DNA of 64,000 bases from an uncultured Methanosarcinales archaeon (GTDB taxonomy: Archaea > Nanobdellota > Nanobdellia > Woesearchaeales > CAYSVS01): positions 20,611 to 84,610 of the forward strand of contig CAZPRK010000004.1 of NCBI GenBank assembly GCA_964589485.1, read 5' to 3'. A model generated the notes under the pieces. That model did not search any database, was not told the DNA's origin, and worked only from the letters and a program-made list of their open reading frames with translations. Shown in pieces: positions 2,675-64,000 of the stretch; positions within the stretch are counted from its first letter, which is position 1; each line of letters begins with the position of its first letter. A program made the position numbers and the translations under genes.

Positions 2675-4162
2675 CTAACCTTCGACCTTAACACTATTGG
2701 AATATAGAGTTTTTCTTCTTTTTCCTTTACTATATTTTAAGTTAGCAACAGGTAAAGAAAAATCTCCTAATATGCTTAATTTTGATTTAATTCTATATGT
2801 TAAAATTCTTTCTTCTTGTGGATCTATTTCAGGAATTTCCCACTTAATTAATGTTGCTCCGTTCTTTTTAGTAAATCTTGAAGGGCTTAATGTTCCTACA
2901 TCAAAATCTTTTAATACATCAACAATGTTTGGAACTTTATCTATAATGTCTATGTTTTCAATTGGCTTTACTCCTTCGTTTTTGATGTTGATGTTTATTT
3001 TAATTTGAGATATGCCTCCTTCTGCTGTTTCTATATTGTGGGCTTCTTTTGTAATTCTAAGAGGGCTTTGGTCCATGTAATTATAGAATAAAAATAATAA
3101 AATTAAAATAATTGCATAAAATAGCCATCTATAATTAACTAATATTTCTAAAGTATAATTTTCATCTGATTTTAAATCAATTTCCCATTCAAAATATCTA
3201 TTTCCATCAATATCTTTTGTTAATCTTGCTTTCGGGTTAGTGGAAGTAAAAAATCTACTAAAAAATCCAGTTTCGTGTTGAATTAATTGTTTTTTATCAT
3301 TATTACCTTTATTAGTATATTTTATGGTTTCTTTATTTTTTAAGAATCCGCTTTCTGTTTTTTTTTCTTCTTTGAATCTTTCAGTGTAATCAACTATATT
3401 ATACACAAAAGCACCGATGTGTTGCACTTGACCGTCTATTTCTAATTGTCCTACTACTGTGTCTTTGGTTGGTTTTTGGTTTTCGGCTAGAGAGACTGGC
3501 CATTCAAGAAATGCAGTAGCTATTTGATCATCTACTCTTCCTGCTATTCCTGTTGAAGCTTCCATTACTCCTAATAGAGGACTTTCTAAGGTTACTTTTA
3601 TTTCTTCTTCGGAATATTCCCTTGGATTAAAATTTTCTAGTTTTAACCTTATTTTGTTATCTTCTCTTGGGTCTACTTCATTTGGGAAATCAATTGTTCC
3701 TTGTAAATCAGGAGAATATTTTGAAATGCTATTACTTTTTATGTAAGTATCTAAAGGAATATCTAATGCTGAATTGGAATTTCTTACTTTAAACACTGCC
3801 TTTAATATGTGTGTTCCGGATGCAAGGTTTTCTAATGGATCTAATTTAATTATGAACTTAGTTTCTTTTGCAGGATATAATGCAGTTTCTGATGCAGTAT
3901 ATAATAATGGTTCTGATCTTACCCATTTCCACTCGTATACTTCACTAAATATAATACTTAAATAATCTATTTTTTCTTTATTATTGGATACTGTTATTGC
4001 AAATTCAGCAGATTCTTGGGTTGAAATTTCATTTTTTATTGGTTCAACTTTAACTTGAAAAAAATCATTTGCATAAATTCTTTCTTTTTCAAGTACAACT
4101 GGTTCAGCATATGCAAAAGAACTTAATATGATTAATAATATAATTGGTAGTTTAAACTTCAT
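2675..4162 (-). CDS. secreted surface protein with C-terminal TM anchor (hypothetical)
   Basis: N-terminal signal peptide 'MKFKLPIILLIILSSFAYA'. Hydrophobic helix 'LFYAIILILLFLFYNY' near the C-terminus. Confidence 0.5.
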   Translation of the reverse strand: MKFKLPIILLIILSSFAYAEPVVLEKERIYANDFFQVKVEPIKNEISTQESAEFAITVSNNKEKIDYLSIIFSEVYEWKWVRSEPLLYTASETALYPAKETKFIIKLDPLENLASGTHILKAVFKVRNSNSALDIPLDTYIKSNSISKYSPDLQGTIDFPNEVDPREDNKIRLKLENFNPREYSEEEIKVTLESPLLGVMEASTGIAGRVDDQIATAFLEWPVSLAENQKPTKDTVVGQLEIDGQVQHIGAFVYNIVDYTERFKEEKKTESGFLKNKETIKYTNKGNNDKKQLIQHETGFFSRFFTSTNPKARLTKDIDGNRYFEWEIDLKSDENYTLEILVNYRWLFYAIILILLFLFYNYMDQSPLRITKEAHNIETAEGGISQIKININIKNEGVKPIENIDIIDKVPNIVDVLKDFDVGTLSPSRFTKKNGATLIKWEIPEIDPQEERILTYRIKSKLSILGDFSLPVANLKYSKGKRRKTLYSNSVKVEG

Positions 4163-4280
4163 AATTTCTTCCCTCGCTAATAAATTATAACTTAAACTAT
4201 CTTAAATCATATTTAAATTTTCCTATTACCAAGTATACTCTTTCTACTAAATAATGATAAACTATTTATATTTGTTATAA

Positions 4281-5066
4281 TTGTTTGAATTGGTGACGTA
4301 TACTAAGTTAGCTATATTTGATATGGATGGTACTCTTATTATTCAAGAAACTACTGATGTTATGGCTAGCTTAAAAGGTAAGGAAAAAGAAGTTGCTGAA
4401 ATTACTACTTTAGGAATGACTGGTAATTTAGATTTTAAAGTTTCTGTTCTTAGAAGGCTTAGTATCATGAACCCATCTATGGATGATTTTGAAAATATAT
4501 CTGATAATTTAGATTTAAGTACTGGAGCAGTTGATTTAATAAGTTTTTTGAAACAAAATGATTTTATTGTTGGGATTATTTCAGGAGGGTTTGATCCTGT
4601 TGCAGAAAAGATAGCAAAAAGAGTAGGGGCGAATTTTTATATCGCGAATTCTTTAAATGAAGTTAATAATGGCCTTGAAGTTGATTTTAATGTGTATAAT
4701 AATAAAGCTACTTTAGTTTCATTTTTATCTGAATTATTTCAAAGCGAATTTGTTTTTGCAATTGGTGATGGAAGTAATGATTTGAGAATGTTGCAAGCTG
4801 CTAATTTAGGTGTTGTGTATAAAAGTACTAATTTGAGAGGTAGATTACCGCAACATAGTTATATTCCTGAAAATTTATATGATTCTGTTGAATTAATACG
4901 CAATTTTGATGGGTCGAAGAGAATGGTTTCTAGGTCGGATGAATTGTTAAATTTTCATAATCATATATCAAATATAGATAAACCTATTAACCTTTCTTTG
5001 GAATATATGTTATTTACAGGTAAAAGAATATTGGATTTAGGTCAAGATGAAAGCTACGCACGATAG
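4281..5066 (+). CDS. HAD-superfamily phosphatase, phosphoserine-phosphatase-like
   Basis: HAD motif I 'FDMDGTL' and motif IV 'GDGSND'. Confidence 0.6.
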   Translation: MFELVTYTKLAIFDMDGTLIIQETTDVMASLKGKEKEVAEITTLGMTGNLDFKVSVLRRLSIMNPSMDDFENISDNLDLSTGAVDLISFLKQNDFIVGIISGGFDPVAEKIAKRVGANFYIANSLNEVNNGLEVDFNVYNNKATLVSFLSELFQSEFVFAIGDGSNDLRMLQAANLGVVYKSTNLRGRLPQHSYIPENLYDSVELIRNFDGSKRMVSRSDELLNFHNHISNIDKPINLSLEYMLFTGKRILDLGQDESYAR

Positions 5067-8536: not shown

Positions 8537-9804
8537 AAATTAAATTTTTTGGTGCAGCCAAGGAAGTTGGAAGAAGCTGTGTTGTTATTGAATCAAATAA
8601 TGAAAAATATATGCTAGATTGTGGCCTTAAATTTGGAAAGTATGGAAATGAATATCCTCTTAAATTTGATGTTACTAAAATAGATGCTACTTTTATTAGT
8701 CATGCTCATTTAGATCACACTGGGGCCTTGCCTTTATTTAATAGCCAAGGTTTAAATTGTCCTATTTTTACAACAGCAGAAACAAAAGAAATTACAAGAA
8801 TTCTGTTAAAAGATTCATTACATATTGAAATGTTAAATGGAACATATCCGCATTATGATGAAGAACATATTTATCATGTGTTGGGTGCAATGAGAAGAGT
8901 AAATTATAAAGAAACTTCTTCTTTTAGTAATATAGAATATACTTTTTATGATGCGGGACATATTCCAGGAAGTGCTTCAATATTATTAACAGTTGAAGGA
9001 AAAAATATTTTATACACTGGTGATATTCAAACTAATGAGAGTGAATTATTACCTCCTGCTGATACAAATTATGATAAAAAAGTTGATATTCTTATTTGTG
9101 AATCTACATATGGAATTAGAGAACATGTTCCTAGACAAAATGAAGAAAGTAAATTTATTAAAGAAATTGAGAATGCATTATTAGATGGAGGTTCAGCAAT
9201 TATTCCAGCTTTTGGAGTAGGAAGAGCACAAGAAATAATATTATTACTTGATAAATTAAACATTAAAGTTCCAATTTATTTAGACGGTATGGCTAAAAAG
9301 GTTACAAATTTATTTCTTCAAAAGCCACAATTTTTGAAAGATGCAAATCATTTAAAAAAAGTACTTAGAAAAATAAAATATGTTCAAGGAAAGCATATGA
9401 GAGAGAGGTTAATTAGAGAAAATAGTGTTATTATTTCAACTTCAGGAATGGTTACAGGTGGACCAGTGATGTTTTATTTGGATAAATTTAAGAACGATAA
9501 AAAAACTGTAATTTTACTTACTGGTTACCAAGCTGAGGGAACAAATGGACGTACATTACTTTCAAAAGGAATGGTTAAAATAGACGATAAACCTACAAAA
9601 ATTAAATGTAAAGTAAGACAATTTGATTTTTCTGCTCATTCTGGGCTAAAAGGTTTGAAAAATTTAATATTAAAAATTAATCCCAAAGTTCTTTTATTAA
9701 ATCATGGAGATCAAACTTCAGAAGATAATTTAGAAGGTTGGGCAAGGAATAAAAATTTTGAAGTACATAGTTTAGCTTTAGGTGAATGTTACGATGGGCA
9801 TTAG
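8533..9804 (+). CDS. metallo-beta-lactamase / beta-CASP ribonuclease (aCPSF2- or RNase J-like)
   Basis: 'SHAHLDHTGALP' MBL motif. 423 aa and no KH domains. Overlaps the ParA stop (ATGA). Confidence 0.75.
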   Translation: MKIKFFGAAKEVGRSCVVIESNNEKYMLDCGLKFGKYGNEYPLKFDVTKIDATFISHAHLDHTGALPLFNSQGLNCPIFTTAETKEITRILLKDSLHIEMLNGTYPHYDEEHIYHVLGAMRRVNYKETSSFSNIEYTFYDAGHIPGSASILLTVEGKNILYTGDIQTNESELLPPADTNYDKKVDILICESTYGIREHVPRQNEESKFIKEIENALLDGGSAIIPAFGVGRAQEIILLLDKLNIKVPIYLDGMAKKVTNLFLQKPQFLKDANHLKKVLRKIKYVQGKHMRERLIRENSVIISTSGMVTGGPVMFYLDKFKNDKKTVILLTGYQAEGTNGRTLLSKGMVKIDDKPTKIKCKVRQFDFSAHSGLKGLKNLILKINPKVLLLNHGDQTSEDNLEGWARNKNFEVHSLALGECYDGH

Positions 9805-10033
9805 CGAAGCAATTAATATATTTGAACAGAGGAAAGTAAGAATGAGTCAATTACTTTCACAAAATAGTTTTTCTCCAGAAAGGAGACATAGGATAGAAGG
9901 AGCTGTAGAAGAAATTGATGTTTTTATAAATACGTTAAGAAGTTTACAAATTCGTAATTCTGGACTTGATAATTTAATTCCAGAGGAAGAACCTTCATTT
10001 TTAGATAAGATTAGTTCTAGGTTTAAGGGTTGA
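9782..10033 (+). CDS. hypothetical small protein (83 aa)
   Basis: ORF coupled between neighbouring genes. Confidence 0.3.
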   Translation: MNVTMGISEAINIFEQRKVRMSQLLSQNSFSPERRHRIEGAVEEIDVFINTLRSLQIRNSGLDNLIPEEEPSFLDKISSRFKG

Positions 10034-10881
10034 TTATTTTGATGGGACATGATGTCATAAAAAAGCATGTTAAAAATAGATTAAATAAAGGTCATGATAT
10101 TGTAGATATAAAAAAAGATTTAGTATCAAAAGGTATTCCGGAAAGTCATGTACATAATGCAATCGATAACGCATACGGTGAAATAAAAAAATCGCAAAAA
10201 TTTCATAAAGAGACTCATAAATTATTTTATCCTTCTAAATCAAAAATTATTTTTCCATCACTTCTATTAGTTTTTTTATTAATTAACATATTTACTAATT
10301 TTACTATTATTCCAAATATTTCTAATAATTTATGTGATAGTGTTAATTTAATTAATGAATTAGATACTTTGATTAAAAATAAAGATTCTATCGAAAAAGT
10401 TAGTGAAGTTGAAAGTAAATTAATAAAAAAAGAATTATCTATAATTGATGATTTTAAGAAATATACAGTTTCTAATTTACCTTTGATTTTTTCTGAAATA
10501 TATTGGTTAAATCCATTTTATCCTACTTCATGTGAAGCAAGGGGTATGTTTAAAACTTATGCATGTAGGTATTACATTTCTCCGGAAAATTATAGATGTT
10601 TAAAAGATGATGTACAAAAAACTAAATTATCTACTTTTTTTAAGGGAAAAACTCCAGATTATAATAAAGTACAAAATTTAGAAATTATAGTTCATACTTT
10701 ATTTATTTTATTTGTAGCTTATATACTTAATTGTATGGTTGTTTTTGCTTATAAAAAGCATAGACATAATTACTCTTTAAAAACAATTGAATTATTTGAA
10801 TTTTCATTTGCATTAATAGCTATTTTGCTTCTTTCATTAGCTGTATATTTATATTTTAACATTGTAGGTGGAGTATTATGA
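10030..10881 (+). CDS. hypothetical membrane protein
   Basis: Several hydrophobic helices. Translationally coupled to the downstream ccdA. Confidence 0.4.
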   Translation: MIILMGHDVIKKHVKNRLNKGHDIVDIKKDLVSKGIPESHVHNAIDNAYGEIKKSQKFHKETHKLFYPSKSKIIFPSLLLVFLLINIFTNFTIIPNISNNLCDSVNLINELDTLIKNKDSIEKVSEVESKLIKKELSIIDDFKKYTVSNLPLIFSEIYWLNPFYPTSCEARGMFKTYACRYYISPENYRCLKDDVQKTKLSTFFKGKTPDYNKVQNLEIIVHTLFILFVAYILNCMVVFAYKKHRHNYSLKTIELFEFSFALIAILLLSLAVYLYFNIVGGVL

Positions 10882-11546
10882 TAAGTTTTTATGCGGCTTT
10901 TATTGCGGGTCTAATATCTTTTTTAAGTCCTTGTGTATTGCCTCTAGTTCCTGGTTTTTTAGCATATTTAGCAGGAAGTGAAACTAATTCTAGAACCAAA
11001 TATTTTTTGAATAGTGTTTTTTTTGTTTTAGGGTTTAGTGTAATTTTTGCAATTATTGGTGTATTGCTAAATGGAATATTCAAAAATATATCAATTACTG
11101 TACAAATGTGGCTAAATTGGATAGGTGGTATAATTATAATAATATTTGGATTGCATTTATTAGGTTTAATTAAAGTTTCATTTTTAGAAAAAGAACATAA
11201 AGTTAAAGTTAAATTAAAAAGATCTTATATTACTTCATTTTTATTTGGTGGGGCGTTTGCAGTAGGTTGGACTCCATGTGTTGGTGCCGTCTTGGGGAGC
11301 GTTTTAATTTTAGCTGCAACACAACCAGGGCAAAGTCTTGCATTGTTATTAACATATTCCTTAGGGTTAGGCCTTCCATTTTTGTTTGTCGGGTTATTTT
11401 CAGGTCAAGCAATTAATTTAATCAATAGATCTAAATCATTTTTGAAGTATTTTAATATTTTTGTTGGAATATTATTAATAATATTAGGAGTATTAGTTTT
11501 TACAAATAACTTAATACTTGTCGCAAACTTTGGATGGTTTTTATGA
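10878..11546 (+). CDS. ccdA: CcdA/DsbD-type thiol-disulfide electron transporter (cytochrome c biogenesis CcdA family)
   Basis: 'FLSPCVLPLVPGFLAYLAG' signature with a second Cys in 'WTPCVGAVLG'. Polytopic membrane protein. Confidence 0.8.
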   Translation: MISFYAAFIAGLISFLSPCVLPLVPGFLAYLAGSETNSRTKYFLNSVFFVLGFSVIFAIIGVLLNGIFKNISITVQMWLNWIGGIIIIIFGLHLLGLIKVSFLEKEHKVKVKLKRSYITSFLFGGAFAVGWTPCVGAVLGSVLILAATQPGQSLALLLTYSLGLGLPFLFVGLFSGQAINLINRSKSFLKYFNIFVGILLIILGVLVFTNNLILVANFGWFL

Positions 11547-12595
11547 TTAAAGTAAACAAACCTTTAGTGTTAATTGTTGTATTAATAATTATTCTAGGAT
11601 TTATTGCATATTTAACGCCACAAAGTCCACGTGAAATTGATATTCCTTCGGACGATTTAAGAATAACATTGAAACAAAATAAATATAAAAAAGCTTTTGA
11701 ATTATTAACACCAGATGGTTATATTAACACTAAAAATATTAACCTTACTTCAATTGTTGGTAAGAAAGTTATATTAATTGATTTTTGGACTTATAGTTGC
11801 ATTAATTGTCAAAGAACTTTTCCATACTTGAAAGATTGGCATTCTAAATATAAAGATCAAGGTTTACAAGTAGTAGGAATACATACTCCTGAATTTAAAT
11901 TTGAACGTGAATATGAAAATGTTGTAGATGCGGTAAAAAGATTTGGTTTAGAATATCCTGTCATTATGGACAATGGTTATCAAAATTGGAAAGCGTTCGG
12001 AAATAGATATTGGCCAAGAAAATATTTAATAGATATTGATGGGTTTATTGTATATGACGTTATAGGTGAAGGAAAGTATTTTGAAACAGAACAAAAAATA
12101 AAAGATTTACTTTTTGAAAGATCTAAAGTTTTGGAAATGAATGTAGAAATAGATAACACTATAACTAGAACAGATAGTGTTAAACCAAATTTAATTACAA
12201 CTCCTGAAGTATACTTTGGTTCATATTTCGCAAGAGGAAATACCTTTGGTAATATTGAAGGGTTACATGAAGGAAAGATTATAGATTATTCTTTACCTAA
12301 AATTGAAAAAGATAAAGCTTATGTTTCTGGCACATGGTATAATGATCGTGATTACTTACAATTAGCTTCAGATACTGGAAAGGTTGTATTAAATTTTAAT
12401 GCAAAAAATGTAAATGTTGTTGCAGAAGGGAACTCCACAGGTGATTTGTATTTAGATGGGGAATTCATAAGTAATGTTGAATTTAATGAACCTAAATTAT
12501 ATGAATTAATTATGATAGAAAATTCAGGAAATCATATTCTTGAAATTAAAGTAAAAGGCCCAGGATTTAGAATATATAGTTTTACGTTTGGTTAG
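11534..12595 (+). CDS. membrane-anchored thioredoxin-fold protein (TlpA/ResA-like) with C-terminal extra domain
   Basis: N-terminal TM segment. 'FWTYSCINCQRTFP' CxxC active site in a thioredoxin-like context. Overlaps the ccdA stop. Confidence 0.7.
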   Translation: MVFMIKVNKPLVLIVVLIIILGFIAYLTPQSPREIDIPSDDLRITLKQNKYKKAFELLTPDGYINTKNINLTSIVGKKVILIDFWTYSCINCQRTFPYLKDWHSKYKDQGLQVVGIHTPEFKFEREYENVVDAVKRFGLEYPVIMDNGYQNWKAFGNRYWPRKYLIDIDGFIVYDVIGEGKYFETEQKIKDLLFERSKVLEMNVEIDNTITRTDSVKPNLITTPEVYFGSYFARGNTFGNIEGLHEGKIIDYSLPKIEKDKAYVSGTWYNDRDYLQLASDTGKVVLNFNAKNVNVVAEGNSTGDLYLDGEFISNVEFNEPKLYELIMIENSGNHILEIKVKGPGFRIYSFTFG

Positions 12596-12625
12596 GTTTA
12601 TAAGTTTTCTTTCTAGTTTAACTTT

Positions 12626-13168
12626 ATGGATAGATATGAAGAAGAGTTAAATGAAAAAGGATTTGTTATAGTTGAAGGTGTTGATGTAACTCTATTAGAA
12701 AGATTATATCATAGATTAGAAGTAGATTTAACTAGGGAAATGGCAATTAGTCATTTAGGAAAAATAGAAGGTAGATTTGTAGAAGGTACTTTTTTTTTGT
12801 CTTTACAGGTTTATGATAGTCATAAAAAAAATGATTATTACCCTGAACTTTTTGATTCAATATTTTTATTTAAAGATTCTTTAAATTTAATGCCTTTATA
12901 CCAAGGTATAAAAATTATGCAATTTCGTAGATATTTTGAAACTGATAATTCAGATTTGGTACTTATTCATCAAGATAAGGATCAGCATTTTATTGCTTTT
13001 AAACCTATTGGAGAATCGTTAGAGTTATTAGTTGATGAAAAAATTCAACCTATTAATCTTAAACAAGATCAAGCACTTCATTATGATGGTAGTATACCCC
13101 ATGGTGTGAGAAATTTAAATCCTAACAAAGAAAGATATTCTATTACTTTCAGTATGATGAGAAGTTAA
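12626..13168 (+). CDS. putative Fe(II)/2-oxoglutarate-dependent oxygenase-fold protein
   Basis: 'IHQDKDQH' (HxD) with distal 'HYDGSIPHGVRNL...RYSITF' (His and Arg) spaced as in the double-stranded beta-helix (DSBH) fold. Weak call. Confidence 0.35.
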   Translation: MDRYEEELNEKGFVIVEGVDVTLLERLYHRLEVDLTREMAISHLGKIEGRFVEGTFFLSLQVYDSHKKNDYYPELFDSIFLFKDSLNLMPLYQGIKIMQFRRYFETDNSDLVLIHQDKDQHFIAFKPIGESLELLVDEKIQPINLKQDQALHYDGSIPHGVRNLNPNKERYSITFSMMRS

Positions 13169-13199
13169 TTTTATAAACATTTAGCTAGTCTTTCCCATA

Positions 13200-14858
13200 A
13201 TGAAAGAGTATATTCAAGAATTAGTAAACACAATAATAGAACAAAATTTAGATAAAGATCAAATTGCTAAATTGAAGCTTAAACTTTGTATTAAACATAA
13301 AATAAAGAAAGCTCCAACTGATATTGAAGTATTGCTTAATGTGAATGAAACTTTACTTCCAAAACTTAAAATATTACAATCTAAACCAACTAGAAGTATT
13401 TCTGGAGTAAGCCCAATTGCAGTAATGACTGAACCAAGCAATTGTCCTCATGGAAAATGTATATTTTGTCCTGGTGGTTTAGATAGTTTTTATGGAGATG
13501 TTCCTCAAAGTTATACCGGGAAAGAACCTGCAACAATGAGAGGGATCAGGAATGATTATAATTCTTATTTACAATCTTTTAATAGGTTACAACAATATGC
13601 ATTATTGGGACATAATTTTGATAAAATAGAATTAATTATAATGGGTGGGACATTTCCAGCAACTCCTAAAGAATACCAAGATTCATTTATTTTAGGTTGT
13701 TTCCAGGCAATGAATGACTTTAGTGATTTATTTTTTGATGATTCTGTTTTTAACATTAAAAAATTCAAAGAATTTTTTGAACTTCCATCCGATATAAATG
13801 ATAAAGAAAGAGAAAAAAGATTAAAAACTAAAATACTTTCTCAAAGAAAAGATTCAGATTTAGTAAGTGAACAAAATAAAAATGAGACTTCTAATATTAG
13901 ATGTATTGCATTATGTATTGAAACTAAACCAGATTGGGCAATGGAAGAACATATAGAACAAATGTTAAAATTAGGTTGTACTAGAGTTGAATTGGGTGTT
14001 CAAAGTACATATGAAGAAGACTTAAAAAAACTAAATAGGGGACATACTGTAGAAGAATCAATAAAATCTATAGAATTGATGAAAAAAGCTTTACTTAAAG
14101 TAGGGTTTCATATGATGCCTGGTTTGCCAAAAAGTACAAAAGAAAAAGATGTTCAAATGTTTAAAGAAATATTTGAGAATCCTGTATATAAACCTGATGC
14201 ATTGAAAATTTATCCGTGTATGGTTATGCCCGGAACTCCTTTATTTAATATATATGAGGCAGGAAAATTTACTCCTATTTCAACAAAGGAAGCAGCAGAA
14301 TTAATTGCAGAAATTAAACCGTTTGTTCCAAAATATTGTAGAATAATGAGAGTTCAAAGAGACATTCCTACATTCCAAACATCTGCAGGGGTAGATAAAA
14401 CTAATCTTAGACAATATGTTGCAGATGTAGTTAAAAAAAATAAAATAATTTGTAACTGTATTAGATGTAGAGAACCAAGAAAAAGAAAAATTAATTGGGA
14501 TAATGTTAAAACAAATGTAATGGAATTTGAAGCAAGTAAAGGAAAAGAATATTTTATTAGTTTTGATGATAATGATATTTTATTAGGTTATTGTAGATTA
14601 AGAATAGATGATAATGTTGCCGGTATAAGAGAATTACATGTTTTTGGAGAAGCTGTAGCTATCGGAGAACAAGGAAATGTTCAACATAAGGGCTTAGGTA
14701 AACAATTATTATTAGAAGCAGAAAAAATATCTGTAGATAATAATTGTATTAAAATAAAAATCATTTCTGGAATAGGTGTAAGAGAATATTATAGAAAATT
14801 AGAGTATGAATTAGAAGGATATTATATGGTTAAAAATCTTTTTAAGCAAGGAATATAA
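13200..14858 (+). CDS. elp3: Elp3-family tRNA uridine-34 modification enzyme (radical SAM + GNAT)
   Basis: 'CPHGKCIFCPGG' (CX4CX2C as in archaeal Elp3). C-terminal GNAT-like acetyltransferase region. 552 aa. Confidence 0.9.
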   Translation: MKEYIQELVNTIIEQNLDKDQIAKLKLKLCIKHKIKKAPTDIEVLLNVNETLLPKLKILQSKPTRSISGVSPIAVMTEPSNCPHGKCIFCPGGLDSFYGDVPQSYTGKEPATMRGIRNDYNSYLQSFNRLQQYALLGHNFDKIELIIMGGTFPATPKEYQDSFILGCFQAMNDFSDLFFDDSVFNIKKFKEFFELPSDINDKEREKRLKTKILSQRKDSDLVSEQNKNETSNIRCIALCIETKPDWAMEEHIEQMLKLGCTRVELGVQSTYEEDLKKLNRGHTVEESIKSIELMKKALLKVGFHMMPGLPKSTKEKDVQMFKEIFENPVYKPDALKIYPCMVMPGTPLFNIYEAGKFTPISTKEAAELIAEIKPFVPKYCRIMRVQRDIPTFQTSAGVDKTNLRQYVADVVKKNKIICNCIRCREPRKRKINWDNVKTNVMEFEASKGKEYFISFDDNDILLGYCRLRIDDNVAGIRELHVFGEAVAIGEQGNVQHKGLGKQLLLEAEKISVDNNCIKIKIISGIGVREYYRKLEYELEGYYMVKNLFKQGI

Positions 14859-46593: not shown

Positions 46594-47037
46594 CTATTTA
46601 GCTAATTTTTGAACTTCGCTTTCAAAGGCTTTAATGCTTCTAAAATTTTGATATACTGAAGTAAACCTTAAATACGCAATAGGATCAATATTTTTTAATT
46701 CTTGCATTGCTAGTTTTCCAACTTGTTTAGTTGTTTGATTATGCTTACTTAAACTTCTAAGTTTAGTTTCAACTTGTATTATGATTTGATCTATTTTTTC
46801 TTCAGAAATAGGTCTTTTTTCACAGGATAATAATAGCCCTTTTTTTAATTTTTCTCTGTCGAATGGTTGCATACTTTTATCTTTTTTTCTTATTAATAAT
46901 GGTCTAAATTCAACTTTTTCGTAAGTTGTAAATCTACTTTTGCATTTCAAACATTCTCTCCTTCTTCTATTAAAGTTATTTTCATCTCTTTTATCTATAA
47001 CTTTACTTGAAGTTGAGGCACAAAATGGACATAGCAT
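46594..47037 (-). CDS. nrdR: transcriptional repressor NrdR (Zn ribbon + ATP-cone)
   Basis: 'MLCPFCAS...CLKCKSRFTTYEKVE' zinc ribbon followed by an ATP-cone. 147 aa. Confidence 0.8.
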   Translation of the reverse strand: MLCPFCASTSSKVIDKRDENNFNRRRRECLKCKSRFTTYEKVEFRPLLIRKKDKSMQPFDREKLKKGLLLSCEKRPISEEKIDQIIIQVETKLRSLSKHNQTTKQVGKLAMQELKNIDPIAYLRFTSVYQNFRSIKAFESEVQKLAK

Positions 47038-51516: not shown

Positions 51517-51807
51517 ATGAATAGACTTTGTCCATACTGTAAGAAACATACTGAGCATAAAGTAACTCAGAATAAGAAAAAACAAGCTTCTAGTTTAACT
51601 TATGGTAGTAAAGTTAGAGCTAAATTAAGAGGAAGGGCTAGAGGTACAGGTAATTTGGGAAGATATTCTAAGCCAGCAGTTACTAAATTTAAAAGAACTG
51701 GTGCTAAACAAACTAAAAAGACAGACTTAAGATATGAATGTAAAGACTGTAAAAAGATGCATATGCAAAAGAAAGGCATTAGAGCTAAAAAAGTTGAATT
51801 TGTTTAA
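51517..51807 (+). CDS. rpl44e: ribosomal protein L44e
   Basis: 'MNRLCPYCKKHTEH...YECKDCKK' zinc-ribbon r-protein. Start chosen at 51517, inside the track ORF. Confidence 0.85.
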   Translation: MNRLCPYCKKHTEHKVTQNKKKQASSLTYGSKVRAKLRGRARGTGNLGRYSKPAVTKFKRTGAKQTKKTDLRYECKDCKKMHMQKKGIRAKKVEFV

Positions 51808-52787
51808 ATTTTTTCTATTTTCGGATACGTACCTGGAAGCATAAATACTTTTTTAGAATTAACAGCTACACCTTTTTCTTCATTTAATATTTGATTACTA
51901 TTCATTTTAACTTCTCCAACACTTATTAATTCATTTTTAAGTGTCATGATGGCAACAGTTTGATCAATTTCAATATCACTTTCTACTTTAGAAATTCCAG
52001 GGACATGTAAATTTGCACCATGGCATAAAGTATCTACAGTTGTATCTAATACCCATATTTTTGGCAAGTGACCTACAGCTTTTTCTATTGGTAATAATAC
52101 TCTTCTAATATAATCTTCATTATTTTCATCTTTCCATAATTGTAATGCGTCCATACAGTCATGTAATGTAACTAATGTTTCTTCTTTAAATGGCCCAGTT
52201 TGACTTCTTCTTAATTCCGCCATATGAGCTCCGATTCCAAGTTTATCTCCAATATCTGAACAAAGTTTTCTCATATATGTTCCTGCTTGACACGCCACCC
52301 TAAATAAAACATCTTGTTCAACTATTTCCAAGATATCTAAAGAATATATTGTTCTATCTCTCCATTGTCTTTTAACAGCAGATTTGATTGGTGGAAGTTG
52401 TTTTATTGTTCCTATAAATTCATTCATAATTTTTCTAATTTTAGATTCATCAACTTCTTTATGTAAATGCATTAAAACGATATATTCTTTTCCAGAAGTT
52501 AATAATTGTTCAACTACTCTGGTTGCTCTTCCTATTGCGGTTGGTAAAACACCTGTAACTTTTGGATCTAATGTTCCGCTATGACCTGATTTATTTACAC
52601 TAAATATTTTTTGTATATAAGAACTTACTTGATGAGATGTAGGTCCTTTTGGTTTATCTAAGTTGATTATAGAATATTCTAACAATTCTTCAACTGTTCT
52701 TTCATTTGGATTTTTTCCATATTGTGAAGAAGTTTCTGTTTCTTTTTTAATTAATATTTTTCTATTTATATTCTCAAAAGGTAACAT
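51804..52787 (-). CDS. cbf5: H/ACA RNP pseudouridine synthase Cbf5 (TruB family with PUA domain)
   Basis: 'KSGHSGTLDPKVTGVLP' TruB catalytic motif. C-terminal PUA-like region. Confidence 0.9.
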   Translation of the reverse strand: MLPFENINRKILIKKETETSSQYGKNPNERTVEELLEYSIINLDKPKGPTSHQVSSYIQKIFSVNKSGHSGTLDPKVTGVLPTAIGRATRVVEQLLTSGKEYIVLMHLHKEVDESKIRKIMNEFIGTIKQLPPIKSAVKRQWRDRTIYSLDILEIVEQDVLFRVACQAGTYMRKLCSDIGDKLGIGAHMAELRRSQTGPFKEETLVTLHDCMDALQLWKDENNEDYIRRVLLPIEKAVGHLPKIWVLDTTVDTLCHGANLHVPGISKVESDIEIDQTVAIMTLKNELISVGEVKMNSNQILNEEKGVAVNSKKVFMLPGTYPKIEKI

Positions 52788-52820: not shown

Positions 52821-53366
52821 TTACTTGATTTGTTCTTTTGTAGTTGGAGCTTTTACGGGAGTTGCCCCTGGTCCAGCAGAAGGTGCATCAGGTAAAGCAA
52901 TTTTATGTTTGACTGTAATTGTTTGTAACATCCATTTATCTCCATTACAATCCCATCCTGAGTCTTTTAATTGCGAACATCCGTAAGCTACAACATAATA
53001 TTCTCCTTCATTAAAAGTTTCTTTATTCATAGATATTTCTGTTGTTGCTGTTCCTTGGATCCAGTTAGATTCTTGAACTGTATCTTGGTCAAATGTAAAT
53101 CCTTGCCATTCGTTATTTAAATATATATATCCATTTTTCCAAATAAAACTTTGACTTTTCACAGTAAAACTATTTGATTTTAAACTTTCATCTACTTCAT
53201 AAACTATATCATTATCTACTGAGAATTTTCCTCTTGGAGATGCATATGCATCTAATGCAGAAGTTGCTTGTCCTACAACACCTGGAGACTCAGGATTAGG
53301 AGGAATATCATTATTTGAACAACCAATTAATAATATTGCAATTAAAAGTATTATATATTTTTTCAT
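52821..53366 (-). CDS. lipoprotein, hypothetical
   Basis: Lipobox 'LLIGCSNN'. Confidence 0.45.
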   Translation of the reverse strand: MKKYIILLIAILLIGCSNNDIPPNPESPGVVGQATSALDAYASPRGKFSVDNDIVYEVDESLKSNSFTVKSQSFIWKNGYIYLNNEWQGFTFDQDTVQESNWIQGTATTEISMNKETFNEGEYYVVAYGCSQLKDSGWDCNGDKWMLQTITVKHKIALPDAPSAGPGATPVKAPTTKEQIK

Positions 53367-54304
53367 CTTTTTTTATTTATATACTTTCTCCTATATATAT
53401 TTTTTCTTTTATATTCATGAATTATAAATAAACTAATTAAGATTAATGCTAAAATTAACACAGTATACCCATCACAAACATTCCCTTGAAATAATTTTTT
53501 AGATAAAAAAACTTCAATTAAAGCTGCAACTCCAAGAACAATTACACTTAAAATTAATAAAATAAATGAATCTTTAACTATTATTTTGAAGCTATTAGAC
53601 ATAAATCTCTCTTTAGCGTATGCTTTTGACAATACTCCTCCTGCTATTGCTGCAATAAAATATCCGCCAAGTTCAGGAAGCATATGAAAAAACATTATAG
53701 CTGTATTACAGGATAAAAAAGTAAATGTAAACAGTATACTTGAATTAACTAATTTTAGTTTCACAGATTGAGCTAATGCTGATGCAAATATTGAAGCGTT
53801 CAATGTAATTAAAAAAATAGCTCCGCTTCCATAAAATAATGATAACAAGAAACAAATAAACATTACTAATAAATTATTTAAAAATATAGATTTTAATAAA
53901 CTTTCTTGAATTATTGGTGGCGGAGGTAAGTTGCCTGATACATATTCAACTTTTTTTTGAGTTAATCCTGATAAAACCATTTCTGGAGAGAAATAAGCTA
54001 TAACTAAGAAAACTAAAAATGTTCCAATGAAAAAATATATGAAAAAATCAAGTATAGTTTCATGTTTTTGCCAGAATGTTTTTTTACTTTTTTCTAATTT
54101 TTCTTCCATGCTTAGAAGTTTATTTATACTTGGTAAGGTTAAAATAACAATGAAAAATATTGTTGCTACTCCTATAAAATTAGGTGTTCTCTGAAATAAA
54201 ATCCATGCTGTAAAAAATGAAATAATTGTATATATTACACCCATATAAAAACTATATATATGTTTTTTTTCTAACCATTTTTCTTTAAATAATTTTTCAA
54301 TCAT
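53363..54304 (-). CDS. polytopic membrane protein (hypothetical)
   Basis: About 6 TM helices. Overlaps both neighbours by 4 nt. Confidence 0.45.
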   Translation of the reverse strand: MIEKLFKEKWLEKKHIYSFYMGVIYTIISFFTAWILFQRTPNFIGVATIFFIVILTLPSINKLLSMEEKLEKSKKTFWQKHETILDFFIYFFIGTFLVFLVIAYFSPEMVLSGLTQKKVEYVSGNLPPPPIIQESLLKSIFLNNLLVMFICFLLSLFYGSGAIFLITLNASIFASALAQSVKLKLVNSSILFTFTFLSCNTAIMFFHMLPELGGYFIAAIAGGVLSKAYAKERFMSNSFKIIVKDSFILLILSVIVLGVAALIEVFLSKKLFQGNVCDGYTVLILALILISLFIIHEYKRKNIYRRKYINKKR

Positions 54305-54942
54305 TTTAATACATTTTTTATTGTATCTTCATTATACCCAGATTGTTCAAGTTGTTGTTTAATTGCATCATTACTATAACCTGAATTTCTCATTTGTTGT
54401 ACATATGAAAAAACTTGTGGAGATATAACCGGTTTTCTAAGATAAATTATTAATCCTATAATAAGACTAATTAAAGTAATAGAAACTATTGTAATTAAAA
54501 TTAAATTATTATTTTCAGAATTTAATGAATTGAAAATTTCAGTAGGACTTTGTTTTGTTGCTTGACTACTTTCTTCATTATTGTTATTTTCAATTGCTTG
54601 ATTTTGTGATTCTGCTTGATTTGTAGTGAAACCTTCATCTAGACTTTCTTCTTCATTTGATTGATCTTCTTCTAAGAATTCTTCATCTTCTAATGTCTCT
54701 TCTTTTAAGAATTCTTCATCTTCTAATGTCTCTTCTTTTAAGAATTCTTCATCTTCTAATGTCTCTTCTTCTAAGAATTCTTCATCTTCTAATGTCTCTT
54801 CTTCTAAGAATTCTTCATTTTGAACTTCTCCTAATCCACCTGGGCTTGGAGGTGGAGCTGGAATTGCACCAATTAAAAAAATTAAACCTAATAATAAGAA
54901 AATCACTATGTTTCTTTTTATTATTGTTTTCACCTTTGACAT
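54301..54942 (-). CDS. membrane protein with acidic tandem repeats (EEFLEEETLED)x~5 and Q/N-rich linker
   Basis: N-terminal TM, 'PAPPPSPGG', about five 11-aa acidic repeats, N/Q-rich stretch, second TM, then tail with duplicated 'SGYSNDAIKQQL'/'SGYNEDTIKNVL'. Confidence 0.5.
   Translation of the reverse strand: MSKVKTIIKRNIVIFLLLGLIFLIGAIPAPPPSPGGLGEVQNEEFLEEETLEDEEFLEEETLEDEEFLKEETLEDEEFLKEETLEDEEFLEEDQSNEEESLDEGFTTNQAESQNQAIENNNNEESSQATKQSPTEIFNSLNSENNNLILITIVSITLISLIIGLIIYLRKPVISPQVFSYVQQMRNSGYSNDAIKQQLEQSGYNEDTIKNVLK
54664..54825. repeat. 33-nt tandem direct repeat x~4.7 (in-frame, inside the 54301..54942 CDS)
   Basis: Unit 'TCTAAGAATTCTTCATCTTCTAATGTCTCTTCT' repeats with only T/C variation at unit junctions, read directly. 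Confidence 0.85.
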
Positions 54943-54993
54943 TATACTTTTATATTACTTAAATGTATTTGTTTTAAAAAAAAGAAAAAAAAT

Positions 54994-55662
54994 TTAAAGT
55001 CTTCTTCTTAAGTTTTTCACCATTGATTTAGCTTCATCTTTTAATCCAAGACCAAATCCTATTCCTAAAGCTAATGCAATGGCAAATACAACTCCCGATA
55101 AAACTATCAAGAATGAACTTTGTGCAAGCATAACATTAATTCCTAATTGTGCTAATGCTAGAATAGCTGCAAAAATTAAGATTACGACTTTAAGTACTTC
55201 TGCAATTATTGCTGCACCTGTTGCTTTTGTTTTTAATACTGCTGCTTCAACGTATTGAGCAAACATAAATCCTATTACACCAAATGCTACAGCTGCAATT
55301 AAACTAGGAACCCAAATAGCTAGATTTATGAAAAACACGCTTAATGTTTTCAAGTTAGTTATTTCTGCAGCAGGATTTAAGAATAAAATGAACACATACC
55401 ATTTCGCAACTGCTCCCAGGAAATAAGTTAAGTCAAATCCCCCTAAAAATTTTTTTGCATTTGTTTTTTTGCTTAACAAACTTACAAGTCTTGTTTGTTC
55501 AACAATTTTTCTTACTATATGGCCTATTAATTCAGCAACTAAATAACCTACAATTAAAATAATAATCGCACCAATTAATCCAGGTAATGCTTGAAGTAGT
55601 CCATTGAAAATACTTACTAATGGATTGATTATAGCACTACTTGTTTGTTCTAGAAACGTCAT
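54994..55662 (-). CDS. polytopic membrane protein (hypothetical)
   Basis: About 6 hydrophobic helices. No motif recognised. Confidence 0.45.
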   Translation of the reverse strand: MTFLEQTSSAIINPLVSIFNGLLQALPGLIGAIIILIVGYLVAELIGHIVRKIVEQTRLVSLLSKKTNAKKFLGGFDLTYFLGAVAKWYVFILFLNPAAEITNLKTLSVFFINLAIWVPSLIAAVAFGVIGFMFAQYVEAAVLKTKATGAAIIAEVLKVVILIFAAILALAQLGINVMLAQSSFLIVLSGVVFAIALALGIGFGLGLKDEAKSMVKNLRRRL

Positions 55663-55720
55663 CGTTTCACCCCCTTTTTTAGTAACTTTTGTTGTTATCT
55701 TTTATAAACTTTACTAAAAA

Positions 55721-56065
55721 TTATTTTGGAAAATACTGAGAAAGAACTTTAACTAAATTTTCACCAATTTCATTTGATTTTTCGATTACATGTTTAGTGA
55801 TACTATACATTTCATTCATTGGTATGCTTGTAACTATACAAGTAGGCGTGTCTGTATTTAATATTTTAAAAGCTTCCATTCCATCTATTCCAGGAGGCAT
55901 ATTATTATCAGTAATAATTAAATCGTATTTTTTTAATTGTGCACAATTTAGTAACTCTTTTGCATTAGTAACTTGTTTAATTTGAATATTTGGATTATAT
56001 TTATGAATAATTTGTCTAATTAAATTTCTATCAAATTCCAGATCTTCTGCATGAAGTATTTTCAT
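55721..56065 (-). CDS. stand-alone CheY-like response-regulator receiver domain
   Basis: 'ILHAEDLEF', phospho-acceptor context 'DLIITDNNMPPGIDGMEAFKIL', then 'IVTS'. 114 aa, no output domain. Confidence 0.7.
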   Translation of the reverse strand: MKILHAEDLEFDRNLIRQIIHKYNPNIQIKQVTNAKELLNCAQLKKYDLIITDNNMPPGIDGMEAFKILNTDTPTCIVTSIPMNEMYSITKHVIEKSNEIGENLVKVLSQYFPK

Positions 56066-56119
56066 AATTTTATTAGAATATGGTTCTTTATAAAATTTTA
56101 GTTAATAGTATTCTAAATA

Positions 56120-56698
56120 TCATATCATCACCTTCAATATCATAGGAGCAATATGTTTAAACATCCACCAATGAAATAAAATATGTGTTGCACTGAAAGT
56201 AAAACATTTTACTGGGTTACTTCCCATCATGTAATATAATGGCATTATTGTTAAGTTATACAATATTAATAAAGTTATTCCTGTTGAAAAAACATTTCCA
56301 TTGTAAATAAAGCTAGACATTATTCCTACTATTATGATTGCAACAAAACTTACTATTGTTTGAGGTGCTATTTTCATTGATAATATTTCTCCTAATAATA
56401 ATCCAACAAATCCAACAATTGCTCCGGCTAAAGGCCCATATGCAATTCCACATAAAACTGTTCCTGTAAAAACTAATTCAAAACCTAAACTCCATCTGAT
56501 TACTCTTTGATAAATCATAGAATACCCACCTATGATTACAAAAAGTAAAATAAAAAATAAAGCTTTAATAAATTTAAAAAGTGCAAGAAAGATTAAAATT
56601 AAAACAAAACTAATTAATAAGCAAACTCCTGTCCAAAATAAAAATGGTGATTTTTTTCTTATGTGTTTAATTACTTCTTTTGGTGTTAATTGTTTCAT
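56120..56698 (-). CDS. 5-TM membrane protein, tandem paralog B (BioY/ECF-S-like?)
   Basis: About 60% identical to the upstream paralog. Shared 'AYGPLAGA(I/M)VGF(V/L)GL' resembles BioY 'GPTGGYLVGF'; weak. Confidence 0.5.
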   Translation of the reverse strand: MKQLTPKEVIKHIRKKSPFLFWTGVCLLISFVLILIFLALFKFIKALFFILLFVIIGGYSMIYQRVIRWSLGFELVFTGTVLCGIAYGPLAGAIVGFVGLLLGEILSMKIAPQTIVSFVAIIIVGIMSSFIYNGNVFSTGITLLILYNLTIMPLYYMMGSNPVKCFTFSATHILFHWWMFKHIAPMILKVMI

Positions 56699-56700
56699 TT

Positions 56701-57267
56701 TTACATCATTAATTTTATTAAAATAGGAGCAACTTTACTCAACATCCACCAGTTAAATAATAAATGAGTAGCAGAGAAAGCTACTAATCTTATTGGGTTT
56801 CCGCCCATCATGTAATATAATGGTAATAAAATGATATTGTATGCTAGTAATAAAGTTATTCCTGTTACTGATACATTTCCAGTAAACATAAAATGTGCAA
56901 TTATTCCCACTATTGTGATTGCAATTAAACTTAAGAAAGTTATTGGAGCAAGTTTCATTGTTAATAATTTACCTAAGAATAATCCTAAAAATCCCACCAT
57001 TGCCCCTGCTAAAGGTCCATATGCAATGCTACATAATATTGTTCCTGAAAAAACTAATTCCATTCCCAAACTCCATTTGATATATACATGATACCACATT
57101 GAAAATGCTCCTGCTAGAATGAAAAAAATAATAAAAAATAATGCTCTTATATAATTAAATGTTAATATGAAAAATGTAATTGCTAAACAAATTGCAAAGA
57201 ATATTACTACACCCCAATAAAATCTTGGGTTTTTATTTCTAAGTTTTTGTACATAGTTCATATACAT
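56701..57267 (-). CDS. 5-TM membrane protein, tandem paralog A (BioY/ECF-S-like?)
   Basis: Collinear paralog of 56120..56698, separated from it by 2 nt. Confidence 0.5.
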   Translation of the reverse strand: MYMNYVQKLRNKNPRFYWGVVIFFAICLAITFFILTFNYIRALFFIIFFILAGAFSMWYHVYIKWSLGMELVFSGTILCSIAYGPLAGAMVGFLGLFLGKLLTMKLAPITFLSLIAITIVGIIAHFMFTGNVSVTGITLLLAYNIILLPLYYMMGGNPIRLVAFSATHLLFNWWMLSKVAPILIKLMM

Positions 57268-57343
57268 AGATTTATTTGTTAGTTATATAAATATAACTGA
57301 GTAAAAAGCAATCTTTAATAATAACTATAAATATCTAGAAAAT

Positions 57344-63954: not shown

Positions 63955-64000
63955 ATTTAATTACCTCTCAGAATTAATATAATATAATTAACTTCAAGAT

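Follow-up and report, generated by a model that had tools for sequence, protein, structure and literature searches.

Seven co-directional genes upstream of cbf5 in a gene-dense archaeal genome: probably four separate modules, one of them an orphan receiver gene

Positions 52821-57267 of a 64-kb stretch of archaeal DNA (64,000 nucleotides; hereafter the window) carry seven minus-strand genes in close succession, which encode two paralogous membrane proteins (A and B), a stand-alone CheY-like receiver (REC) domain, a polytopic PF05552 membrane protein, a bitopic membrane protein with acidic repeats, a polytopic SpoIIM-family protein and a predicted lipoprotein. The initial annotation of this region raised the possibility that a receiver embedded among membrane and transporter-like proteins forms a non-canonical signalling or transport-regulation unit. 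Comparison with related genomes does not bear this out: the gene order is conserved in no relative, and the last three genes recur as a trio on their own. We consider it likely that four modules (the A-B pair, the receiver, the PF05552 gene and the trio), each with its own inheritance and probably its own transcription, have come to lie side by side by chance, and little follows from the seven-gene run as a signalling or transport-regulation unit.

In the scenario that we propose, the archaeal genome is very gene-dense and these modules would occupy a slot upstream of cbf5 whose content varies. The A-B pair would be a lineage-specific duplication in an unannotated family that has a fold like that of energy-coupling factor (ECF) S-components and has been seen so far in archaeal contexts; the receiver would be a lineage-specific orphan in which acidic pocket and phospho-acceptor Asp are intact; the PF05552 protein was probably already at this position in an ancestor; and the trio would be a translationally coupled cell-envelope module that moved into the slot.

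Gene content of the slot upstream of cbf5

All seven open reading frames (ORFs) are present in the ORF listing of the window, co-directional and tightly spaced as first described, and identical gene calls are found on the public 126-kb marine-metagenome contig JGI 3300007504 Ga0104999_1000102, of which the window is the reverse complement (about 41.6-105.6 kb). The run really comprises eight genes, as cbf5 continues on the same strand after the lipoprotein gene:

56701-57267, minus strand: paralog A, 188 aa (ORF call)
56120-56698, minus strand: paralog B, 192 aa, starting 2 nt after the stop of A (ORF call)
55721-56065, minus strand: stand-alone receiver (REC), 114 aa (ORF call, PF00072)
54994-55662, minus strand: PF05552 polytopic membrane protein, 222 aa (ORF call, PF05552)
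54301-54942, minus strand: bitopic acidic-repeat membrane protein, 213 aa, first of the trio (ORF call)
53363-54304, minus strand: SpoIIM-family polytopic membrane protein, 313 aa (ORF call, PF01944)
52821-53366, minus strand: predicted lipoprotein, 181 aa (ORF call, lipobox-like LIGC)
51804-52787, minus strand: cbf5 (pseudouridine synthase), directly downstream, the conserved synteny anchor (gene call, synteny)

When cbf5 was used as the synteny anchor in a scan of genome contigs, two relatives were recovered, both on contigs that end near the slot. The related loci compared, with identities to the window proteins, are as follows:

L007, the closest relative (A 85%, B 83%, cbf5 79% identical): HIT-MazG(-NUDIX), then A-B, then cbf5-L44e-MiaB
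L011 (A 95%, B 96% identical): the A-B pair only, on a 2-kb contig with cbf5 off the contig
L015/L021 (cbf5 67% identical): a PF05552 orthologue (61%) followed by cbf5, with no trio
L014 (cbf5 70% identical): an unrelated divergent gene upstream of cbf5

L007 lacks all five middle genes, and 63 nt separate B from cbf5 there. In L015/L021, the PF05552 orthologue is directly upstream of cbf5, and the ORF whose end precedes this orthologue has no relation to either the receiver or B. The slot thus holds different gene sets in the four related lineages compared (L007, L014, L015 and L021) and cbf5-L44e-MiaB stays syntenic; judged by this gene content, the slot is a local hotspot of gene gain and loss. 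cbf5 itself does not belong with the seven genes in a unit.

The individual modules can also be followed outside the slot. Each of the two SpoIIM contexts that we examined (L018 and L019/L020) holds a version of the trio with no receiver, A/B or PF05552 gene near it. Four distant A/B-family loci have single-copy genes in unrelated housekeeping contexts, with no receiver or ABC genes nearby, and at none of 13 other loci with PF05552 homologues is a receiver the neighbour. Because the synteny of L007, L015/L021 and L018/L019 differs, the seven genes separate into four modules with different histories. A gene order conserved across relatives, on which the initial annotation had staked the unit beforehand, is seen in none of L007, L015/L021, L018 and L019.

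The tight co-directional spacing is background in a gene-dense window, and the arrangement is no more than would be expected by chance. By our own ORF call, the whole window contains 81 genes and is about 94% coding; gaps between co-directional genes have a median of 30 nt and 81% of them are 60 nt or shorter, so the spacing of the seven genes is unremarkable. Same-strand runs in the window comprise 10, 8, 6 and 5 genes.

Within the run, the SpoIIM start overlaps the stop of the acidic-protein gene (ATGA) and the lipoprotein start overlaps the SpoIIM stop in the same way (ATGA). Gaps of 51-58 nt precede the receiver gene (54 nt from B), the PF05552 gene and the acidic-protein gene. Two promoter-like boxes lie upstream of genes of the run:

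57284..57291, minus strand: TTTATATA box, putative archaeal TATA box, 24 nt upstream of the A ATG
56087..56094, minus strand: TTTATAAA box, putative own promoter of the receiver gene, 29 nt upstream of its ATG

The PF05552 gene is likewise preceded by a TTTATAAA box at -46 together with a GGGGGTGA Shine-Dalgarno-like motif, downstream of its stop there is a T8CT8 tract, and cbf5 has its own TTTATATA box at -30. On these features, A and B are probably co-transcribed, and the run may be divided into four putative transcription units (A-B, the receiver, the PF05552 gene and acidic protein-SpoIIM-lipoprotein), with cbf5 separate under its own box. These units are only predicted, since strings that resemble a TATA box are frequent at about 27% GC, a composition that is uniform throughout.

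The A and B paralogs

A and B are 52% identical to one another (BLASTP, E=2e-72) rather than ~60% as first estimated. Their topology also proved different from the five transmembrane helices originally proposed, as an AlphaFold2 (AF2) model of A built from a 100-sequence family alignment has seven helices, an N-terminal one followed by a six-helix core, with a predicted local distance difference test score (pLDDT) of 96.7 and a predicted TM-score (pTM) of 0.86. An earlier model from 4 sequences was discarded (pLDDT 50.9). Neither protein has a Pfam match above threshold (PF07155, E=0.5-0.7), and E-values against NCBIfam models are 0.14-0.24. A word-indexed search found three close relatives only; an exhaustive HMMER search with a four-sequence profile retrieved 291 representative clusters at E<=1e-3, 105 of them at E<=1e-10, whose members are mostly 180-200 aa in length, some with N-terminal extensions. 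No Pfam or NCBIfam model exists for this family. Ten representative clusters were looked up, and the two with a source name are both 'hypothetical protein [Nanoarchaeota archaeon]'.

The suggestion that these paralogs are BioY/ECF-S-like holds at the level of the fold. The 100-sequence profile matches the RibU S-component (3p5n) with E=0.0022, and the remaining matches are all FolT S-components. The RibU match spans the whole core (family positions 44-194 against RibU residues 10-167) and includes a junction motif, [YF]GPxAGxxVG, common to RibU and the A/B family. When the model of A was compared with the PDB using Foldseek, the top 12 matches were all ECF S-components (PanT, TmRibU, FolT, RibU, ThiT and 4huq_S), with probabilities of 0.84-1.00, TM-scores of 0.40-0.55 and E-values of 0.085-1.4; the matches to PanT (4rfs_S; probability 1.0, TM-score 0.55), RibU, FolT and ThiT extend over the full length. 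A six-helix S-component fold is therefore recovered for A from a high-confidence model, at weak E-values. At the level of curated sequence families, four of the 100 members have weak matches to PF12822 (ECF_trnsprt) and four to PF07155 (ECF-ribofla_trS), all below threshold (best E=2e-4), and no member passes the threshold of PF12822, PF07155, TIGR04518 or similar models.

A and B resemble ECF S-components in their size of about 190 aa, the six-helix core and the GPxAGxxVG junction motif, and, as for group-II S-components, their genes lie away from ABC genes. They differ in having an extra N-terminal helix, in that no family member reaches a Pfam threshold, and in the lack of EcfT/EcfA in the window or any sampled neighbourhood: no ABC_tran, CbiQ or EcfT/EcfA gene is present in the 66 kb examined or in five other A/B-family contexts. 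The tandem duplication is limited to this marine lineage, and distant family members are single-copy. Taken together, the fold is S-component-like, and A and B are probably remote homologues of S-components with an added N-terminal helix. Judged from the fold, their most likely role is the binding and uptake of a small micronutrient, with the conserved polar residues E70, Y83, Y143, Y151, T167, H168 and N172 as candidate pocket residues only. An unannotated archaeal membrane family in this way gains a fold-level label, ECF S-component-like, which bears on cofactor supply in genome-reduced DPANN-type archaea.

A more far-reaching proposal, which we put forward tentatively and regard as rather doubtful, has two separate parts. 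The A/B family would be an undescribed S-component-like branch, each member a solitary scavenger of a host-derived cofactor that works without an ECF module in genome-reduced archaea, and the A-B duplication would provide a heterodimer or two substrate specificities. Independently of this, the receiver would be a phosphorylation-independent REC domain in which the beta5-Lys segment has been lost.

We think it unlikely that A and B are not S-component homologues at all and belong to an unrelated family of small helical bundles (for example, envelope- or lipid-related) whose resemblance is convergent. Such a view would accommodate the modest statistics of both the profile and the structural matches, the few members that touch PF12822 or PF07155 and do so below threshold, the additional N-terminal helix, and the lack of an EcfT/EcfA gene in the window or in the five family contexts. 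Convergence does not sit easily, however, with three independent methods that give S-components alone, with 12 best structural matches that represent five different S-components (PanT, RibU, FolT, ThiT and 4huq_S), or with a sequence match that covers the entire six-helix core, shared junction motif included.

Two features of A/B neighbourhoods may be recorded here. A conserved partner of the family was sought and rejected: the neighbours of roughly 285 aa found in L016 and in L037 are unrelated and have no significant Pfam match. In L016 (6001-9360), an A/B-family gene and pdxT/pdxS (pyridoxal 5'-phosphate synthase) are located on opposite strands about 1.4 kb apart; the case is isolated, with no such pattern in four other contexts.

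The receiver and the PF05552 protein

The 114-aa receiver passes PF00072 over residues 3-94 (45.2 bits against a cut-off of 30.2), in agreement with its first description as a stand-alone CheY-like domain. In hhalign, MAFFT and PDB phmmer alignments, Glu7/Asp8, Asp53 and Thr79 align with CheY Asp12/Asp13, Asp57 and Thr87 (the CheY, Spo0F and PhoB reference sequences used with hhalign and MAFFT were entered by hand), such that the acidic pair, the phospho-acceptor Asp and the Thr/Ser position are all present. The last 28 residues have no confident alignment: the Pfam match ends at profile position 89 of 111, hhalign goes no further than residue 86, and the beta5-Lys segment is dropped in the MAFFT alignment. 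The conserved Asp and Lys had been singled out for checking on a proper alignment; the Asp is confirmed as Asp53, and the Lys is not placed by any of these alignments. By eye, we prefer Lys96 (HVIEKS, in a short alpha4-beta5 loop) as a candidate for the conserved Lys, with Lys106 (NLVKV) or loss of the residue also possible.

The observation that the window contains no histidine kinase or chemotaxis gene stands. The precomputed Pfam matches, covering 3.2-64 kb of the window plus 2 kb beyond, include no HisKA, HATPase_c or CheA; Pfam comparison of the three leftmost window ORFs detected no histidine kinase; and a six-frame regular-expression search over the window found no H-box and no G1-box. 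No cognate histidine kinase is thus encoded within the 64-kb window plus 2 kb beyond. Among 5.8 billion proteins, a word-indexed search, which is blind to divergent relatives, returned only the match of the receiver to itself.

Among the response regulators of archaea, about 40% are stand-alone REC domains; the majority of these REC-only regulators lie outside conserved neighbourhoods, and two-component proteins are encoded in some DPANN phyla (PMC5847659). In view of this census, an isolated REC gene is not unusual in itself. The receiver is like archaeal stand-alone CheY-like proteins in consisting of a single REC domain with the acidic pair, Asp and Thr in place, and like most of them it has no conserved neighbourhood (PMC5847659). 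It differs from a typical REC domain in being short and in having an alpha4-beta5-alpha5 region that does not align, and from a canonical two-component regulator in that there are no kinase or che genes in the window and no close relative was found. If active, the receiver would be phosphorylated by a kinase or a small phospho-donor encoded elsewhere, and it may then act through protein-protein contacts, as is thought for archaeal REC-only proteins generally (PMC5847659).

The 222-aa protein encoded next to it contains the PF05552 'conserved TM helix' (E=3e-10). It aligns to the C-terminal half of NF033912 with 47.9 bits, below the cut-off of 100, and no MscS channel/beta domain (PF00924) is detected in it. 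The protein does not, then, qualify as an MscS-type mechanosensitive channel: it shares the PF05552 transmembrane helix with the mechanosensitive-channel-like NF033912 proteins but not the MscS domain, and a channel function is putative.

The bitopic protein-SpoIIM-lipoprotein trio and the run as a whole

The last three genes form a conserved module with overlapping starts and stops, for which a cell-envelope role may be proposed. Its first product, the 213-aa bitopic protein, has an N-terminal hydrophobic segment, a PPPSPGG motif, acidic repeats (47 Asp+Glu in the whole protein), a transmembrane helix and a cytoplasmic tail of roughly 45 aa whose similarity to RecX/UBA-like three-helix domains is sub-threshold. 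The repeat reported in this membrane protein is readily confirmed:

54665-54818, minus strand: tandem repeat, 33 nt x 4.7 copies at 98% match, encoding EEFLEEETLED units (repeat search)

The second protein matches nearly the whole SpoIIM profile (PF01944, positions 3-162 of 163; E=2.9e-11, 44 bits against a cut-off of 26.9) and is thus a full-domain member of this family above threshold. It has 113 homologues at 26-73% identity, of which the named ones are labelled Woesearchaeota or Nanoarchaeota. The third protein, annotated from the outset as a lipoprotein at the end of the run, begins MKKYIILLIAILLIGC (...LLIGC), a lipobox-like signal as read from the sequence, and carries an uncharacterised predicted extracellular domain.

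The same arrangement is found in L018 (SpoIIM 73% identical) and in L019/L020 (54%). In both, the gene that overlaps the SpoIIM start has the bitopic architecture of the acidic protein: a hydrophobic N-terminus, a poly-Pro/PGG motif, a low-complexity or Cys-rich ectodomain and a transmembrane helix, followed by a roughly 45-aa tail of the form '..GY..e.Ik..L..sGY...I..vL'. Homologues of the lipoprotein domain lie downstream of SpoIIM, in three copies in L018 (35-41% identical) and at 31% identity in L019. The ectodomain varies, with an acidic repeat in the window, a Ser/Gly-rich segment in L018 and a Cys-rich one in L019; because the orthologues in relatives have such different low-complexity ectodomains, this part of the protein evolves fast, possibly under diversifying pressure. 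The acidic repeat region itself (54665-54818) has expanded recently.

In Bacillus subtilis, peptidoglycan is the target of SpoIIM together with SpoIID and SpoIIP. Unlike that system, the window protein belongs to an archaeon without sporulation, SpoIID/SpoIIP-type partners are absent here, and the SpoIIM gene is coupled instead to those of a bitopic protein with a variable ectodomain and a lipoprotein. The definition of this three-gene module, with its proposed envelope role, in Woesearchaeota-type genomes offers a handle on what SpoIIM/DUF95 proteins do outside sporulation.

Some further features of the trio are worth recording. The motif P-P-x-P-x-x-P-G-G occurs just after the N-terminal hydrophobic segment in the bitopic protein, the lipoprotein and their homologues (examples are AIPAPPPSPGGLG, DIPPNPESPGVVGQA, ALPPPPETPGGF, DLPPEPGAPGGITVGQA and AQPPPPPPPPPIG; the sites are window 54301-54942 and 52821-53366, L018 1703-2350 and 3352-4332, and L019 5979-7007), and it may serve as a signal for envelope sorting or processing, or as a spacer. 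A loop of the SpoIIM protein contains NLPPPPII as well. The lipoprotein domain has been multiplied in L018, where a 326-aa ORF contains two fused copies and a further copy lies downstream (3352-4867), and in L019, where a protein of 1288 aa has it as its N-terminus (9548-13414).

Two other explanations of the entire run have to be set beside four separate modules. In one, the orphan receiver would be the regulatory subunit of a lineage-specific membrane complex, gating the ECF-S-like, PF05552 or SpoIIM proteins by phosphorylation or by phosphorylation-independent binding. The receiver gene is indeed co-directional between membrane-protein genes with gaps of 54-58 nt, its acidic pocket, Asp53 and Thr79 are intact, and the protein-protein interactions through which archaeal REC-only proteins are thought to act (PMC5847659) would fit such a subunit. 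However, the arrangement is kept in no relative, the word-indexed search detected no close relative of the receiver, every neighbouring family is widespread without a receiver, the spacing is no tighter than background, promoter-like and terminator-like elements flank the receiver and PF05552 genes, and the window holds no kinase, all of which make a dedicated complex very improbable. The least probable of the explanations is a recent horizontal insertion, between B and cbf5, of a single islet that comprises all five genes, receiver through lipoprotein: although the whole block of about 3.3 kb is absent from L007 and the receiver is an orphan, the PF05552 gene already adjoins cbf5 in the more distant L015/L021, which points to ancestral presence and loss in L007 rather than a single insertion, the trio homologues look vertically inherited (54-73% identity in related genomes), and a mobile-element reading was dropped, as the Pfam lists contain no integrase, neither a tRNA nor meaningful direct repeats flank the block, and GC is uniform.

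Several points nevertheless weigh against the reading of four independent modules that we favour. Few related genomes were sampled, and the contigs of L015, L021 and L014 are cut close to the slot. The homologue search for the receiver was word-indexed and cannot see divergent relatives, and since the receiver exists only in this lineage, comparative data cannot test a lineage-specific link with its neighbours. The promoter-like boxes could be chance motifs in such AT-rich DNA, and read-through transcription of all eight co-directional genes is possible. Finally, the statistics of the ECF-S assignment are weak (profile E=0.0022; Foldseek E>=0.085 and TM-scores of 0.40-0.55 in the top 12).

The surroundings of the run are archaeal, with genes for cbf5, L44e, a thermosome subunit, a proteasome subunit, aCPSF1, TFB and histone, and the names on homologues suggest that the lineage is likely of Woesearchaeota/DPANN type. 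The labels themselves look inconsistent, in that the L014/L015 genomes are labelled 'uncultured Methanosarcinales archaeon' and the SpoIIM and A/B homologues are labelled Woesearchaeota/Nanoarchaeota. A scan for defence systems with PADLOC gave nothing beyond a marginal REC-like match (E=0.0019), and a defence-system reading was dropped.

Other observations concern genes outside the run. Just past window position 64000, the proteasome subunit gene has as its neighbour an ORF of 1524 aa that gives no Pfam match (L001 1-1618). An NrdR-like gene (Zn_ribbon_NrdR and ATP-cone in the precomputed Pfam matches) is located at 46594-47037 on the minus strand of the window, in an archaeal genome; for the NrdR-like gene in L007 and L002, the Pfam call is ATP-cone only. 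L038, an archaeal contig with a distant A/B-family member, encodes at 11439-13412 a pyruvate:ferredoxin-oxidoreductase beta-type subunit with an intein (Intein_splicing and LAGLIDADG_3).

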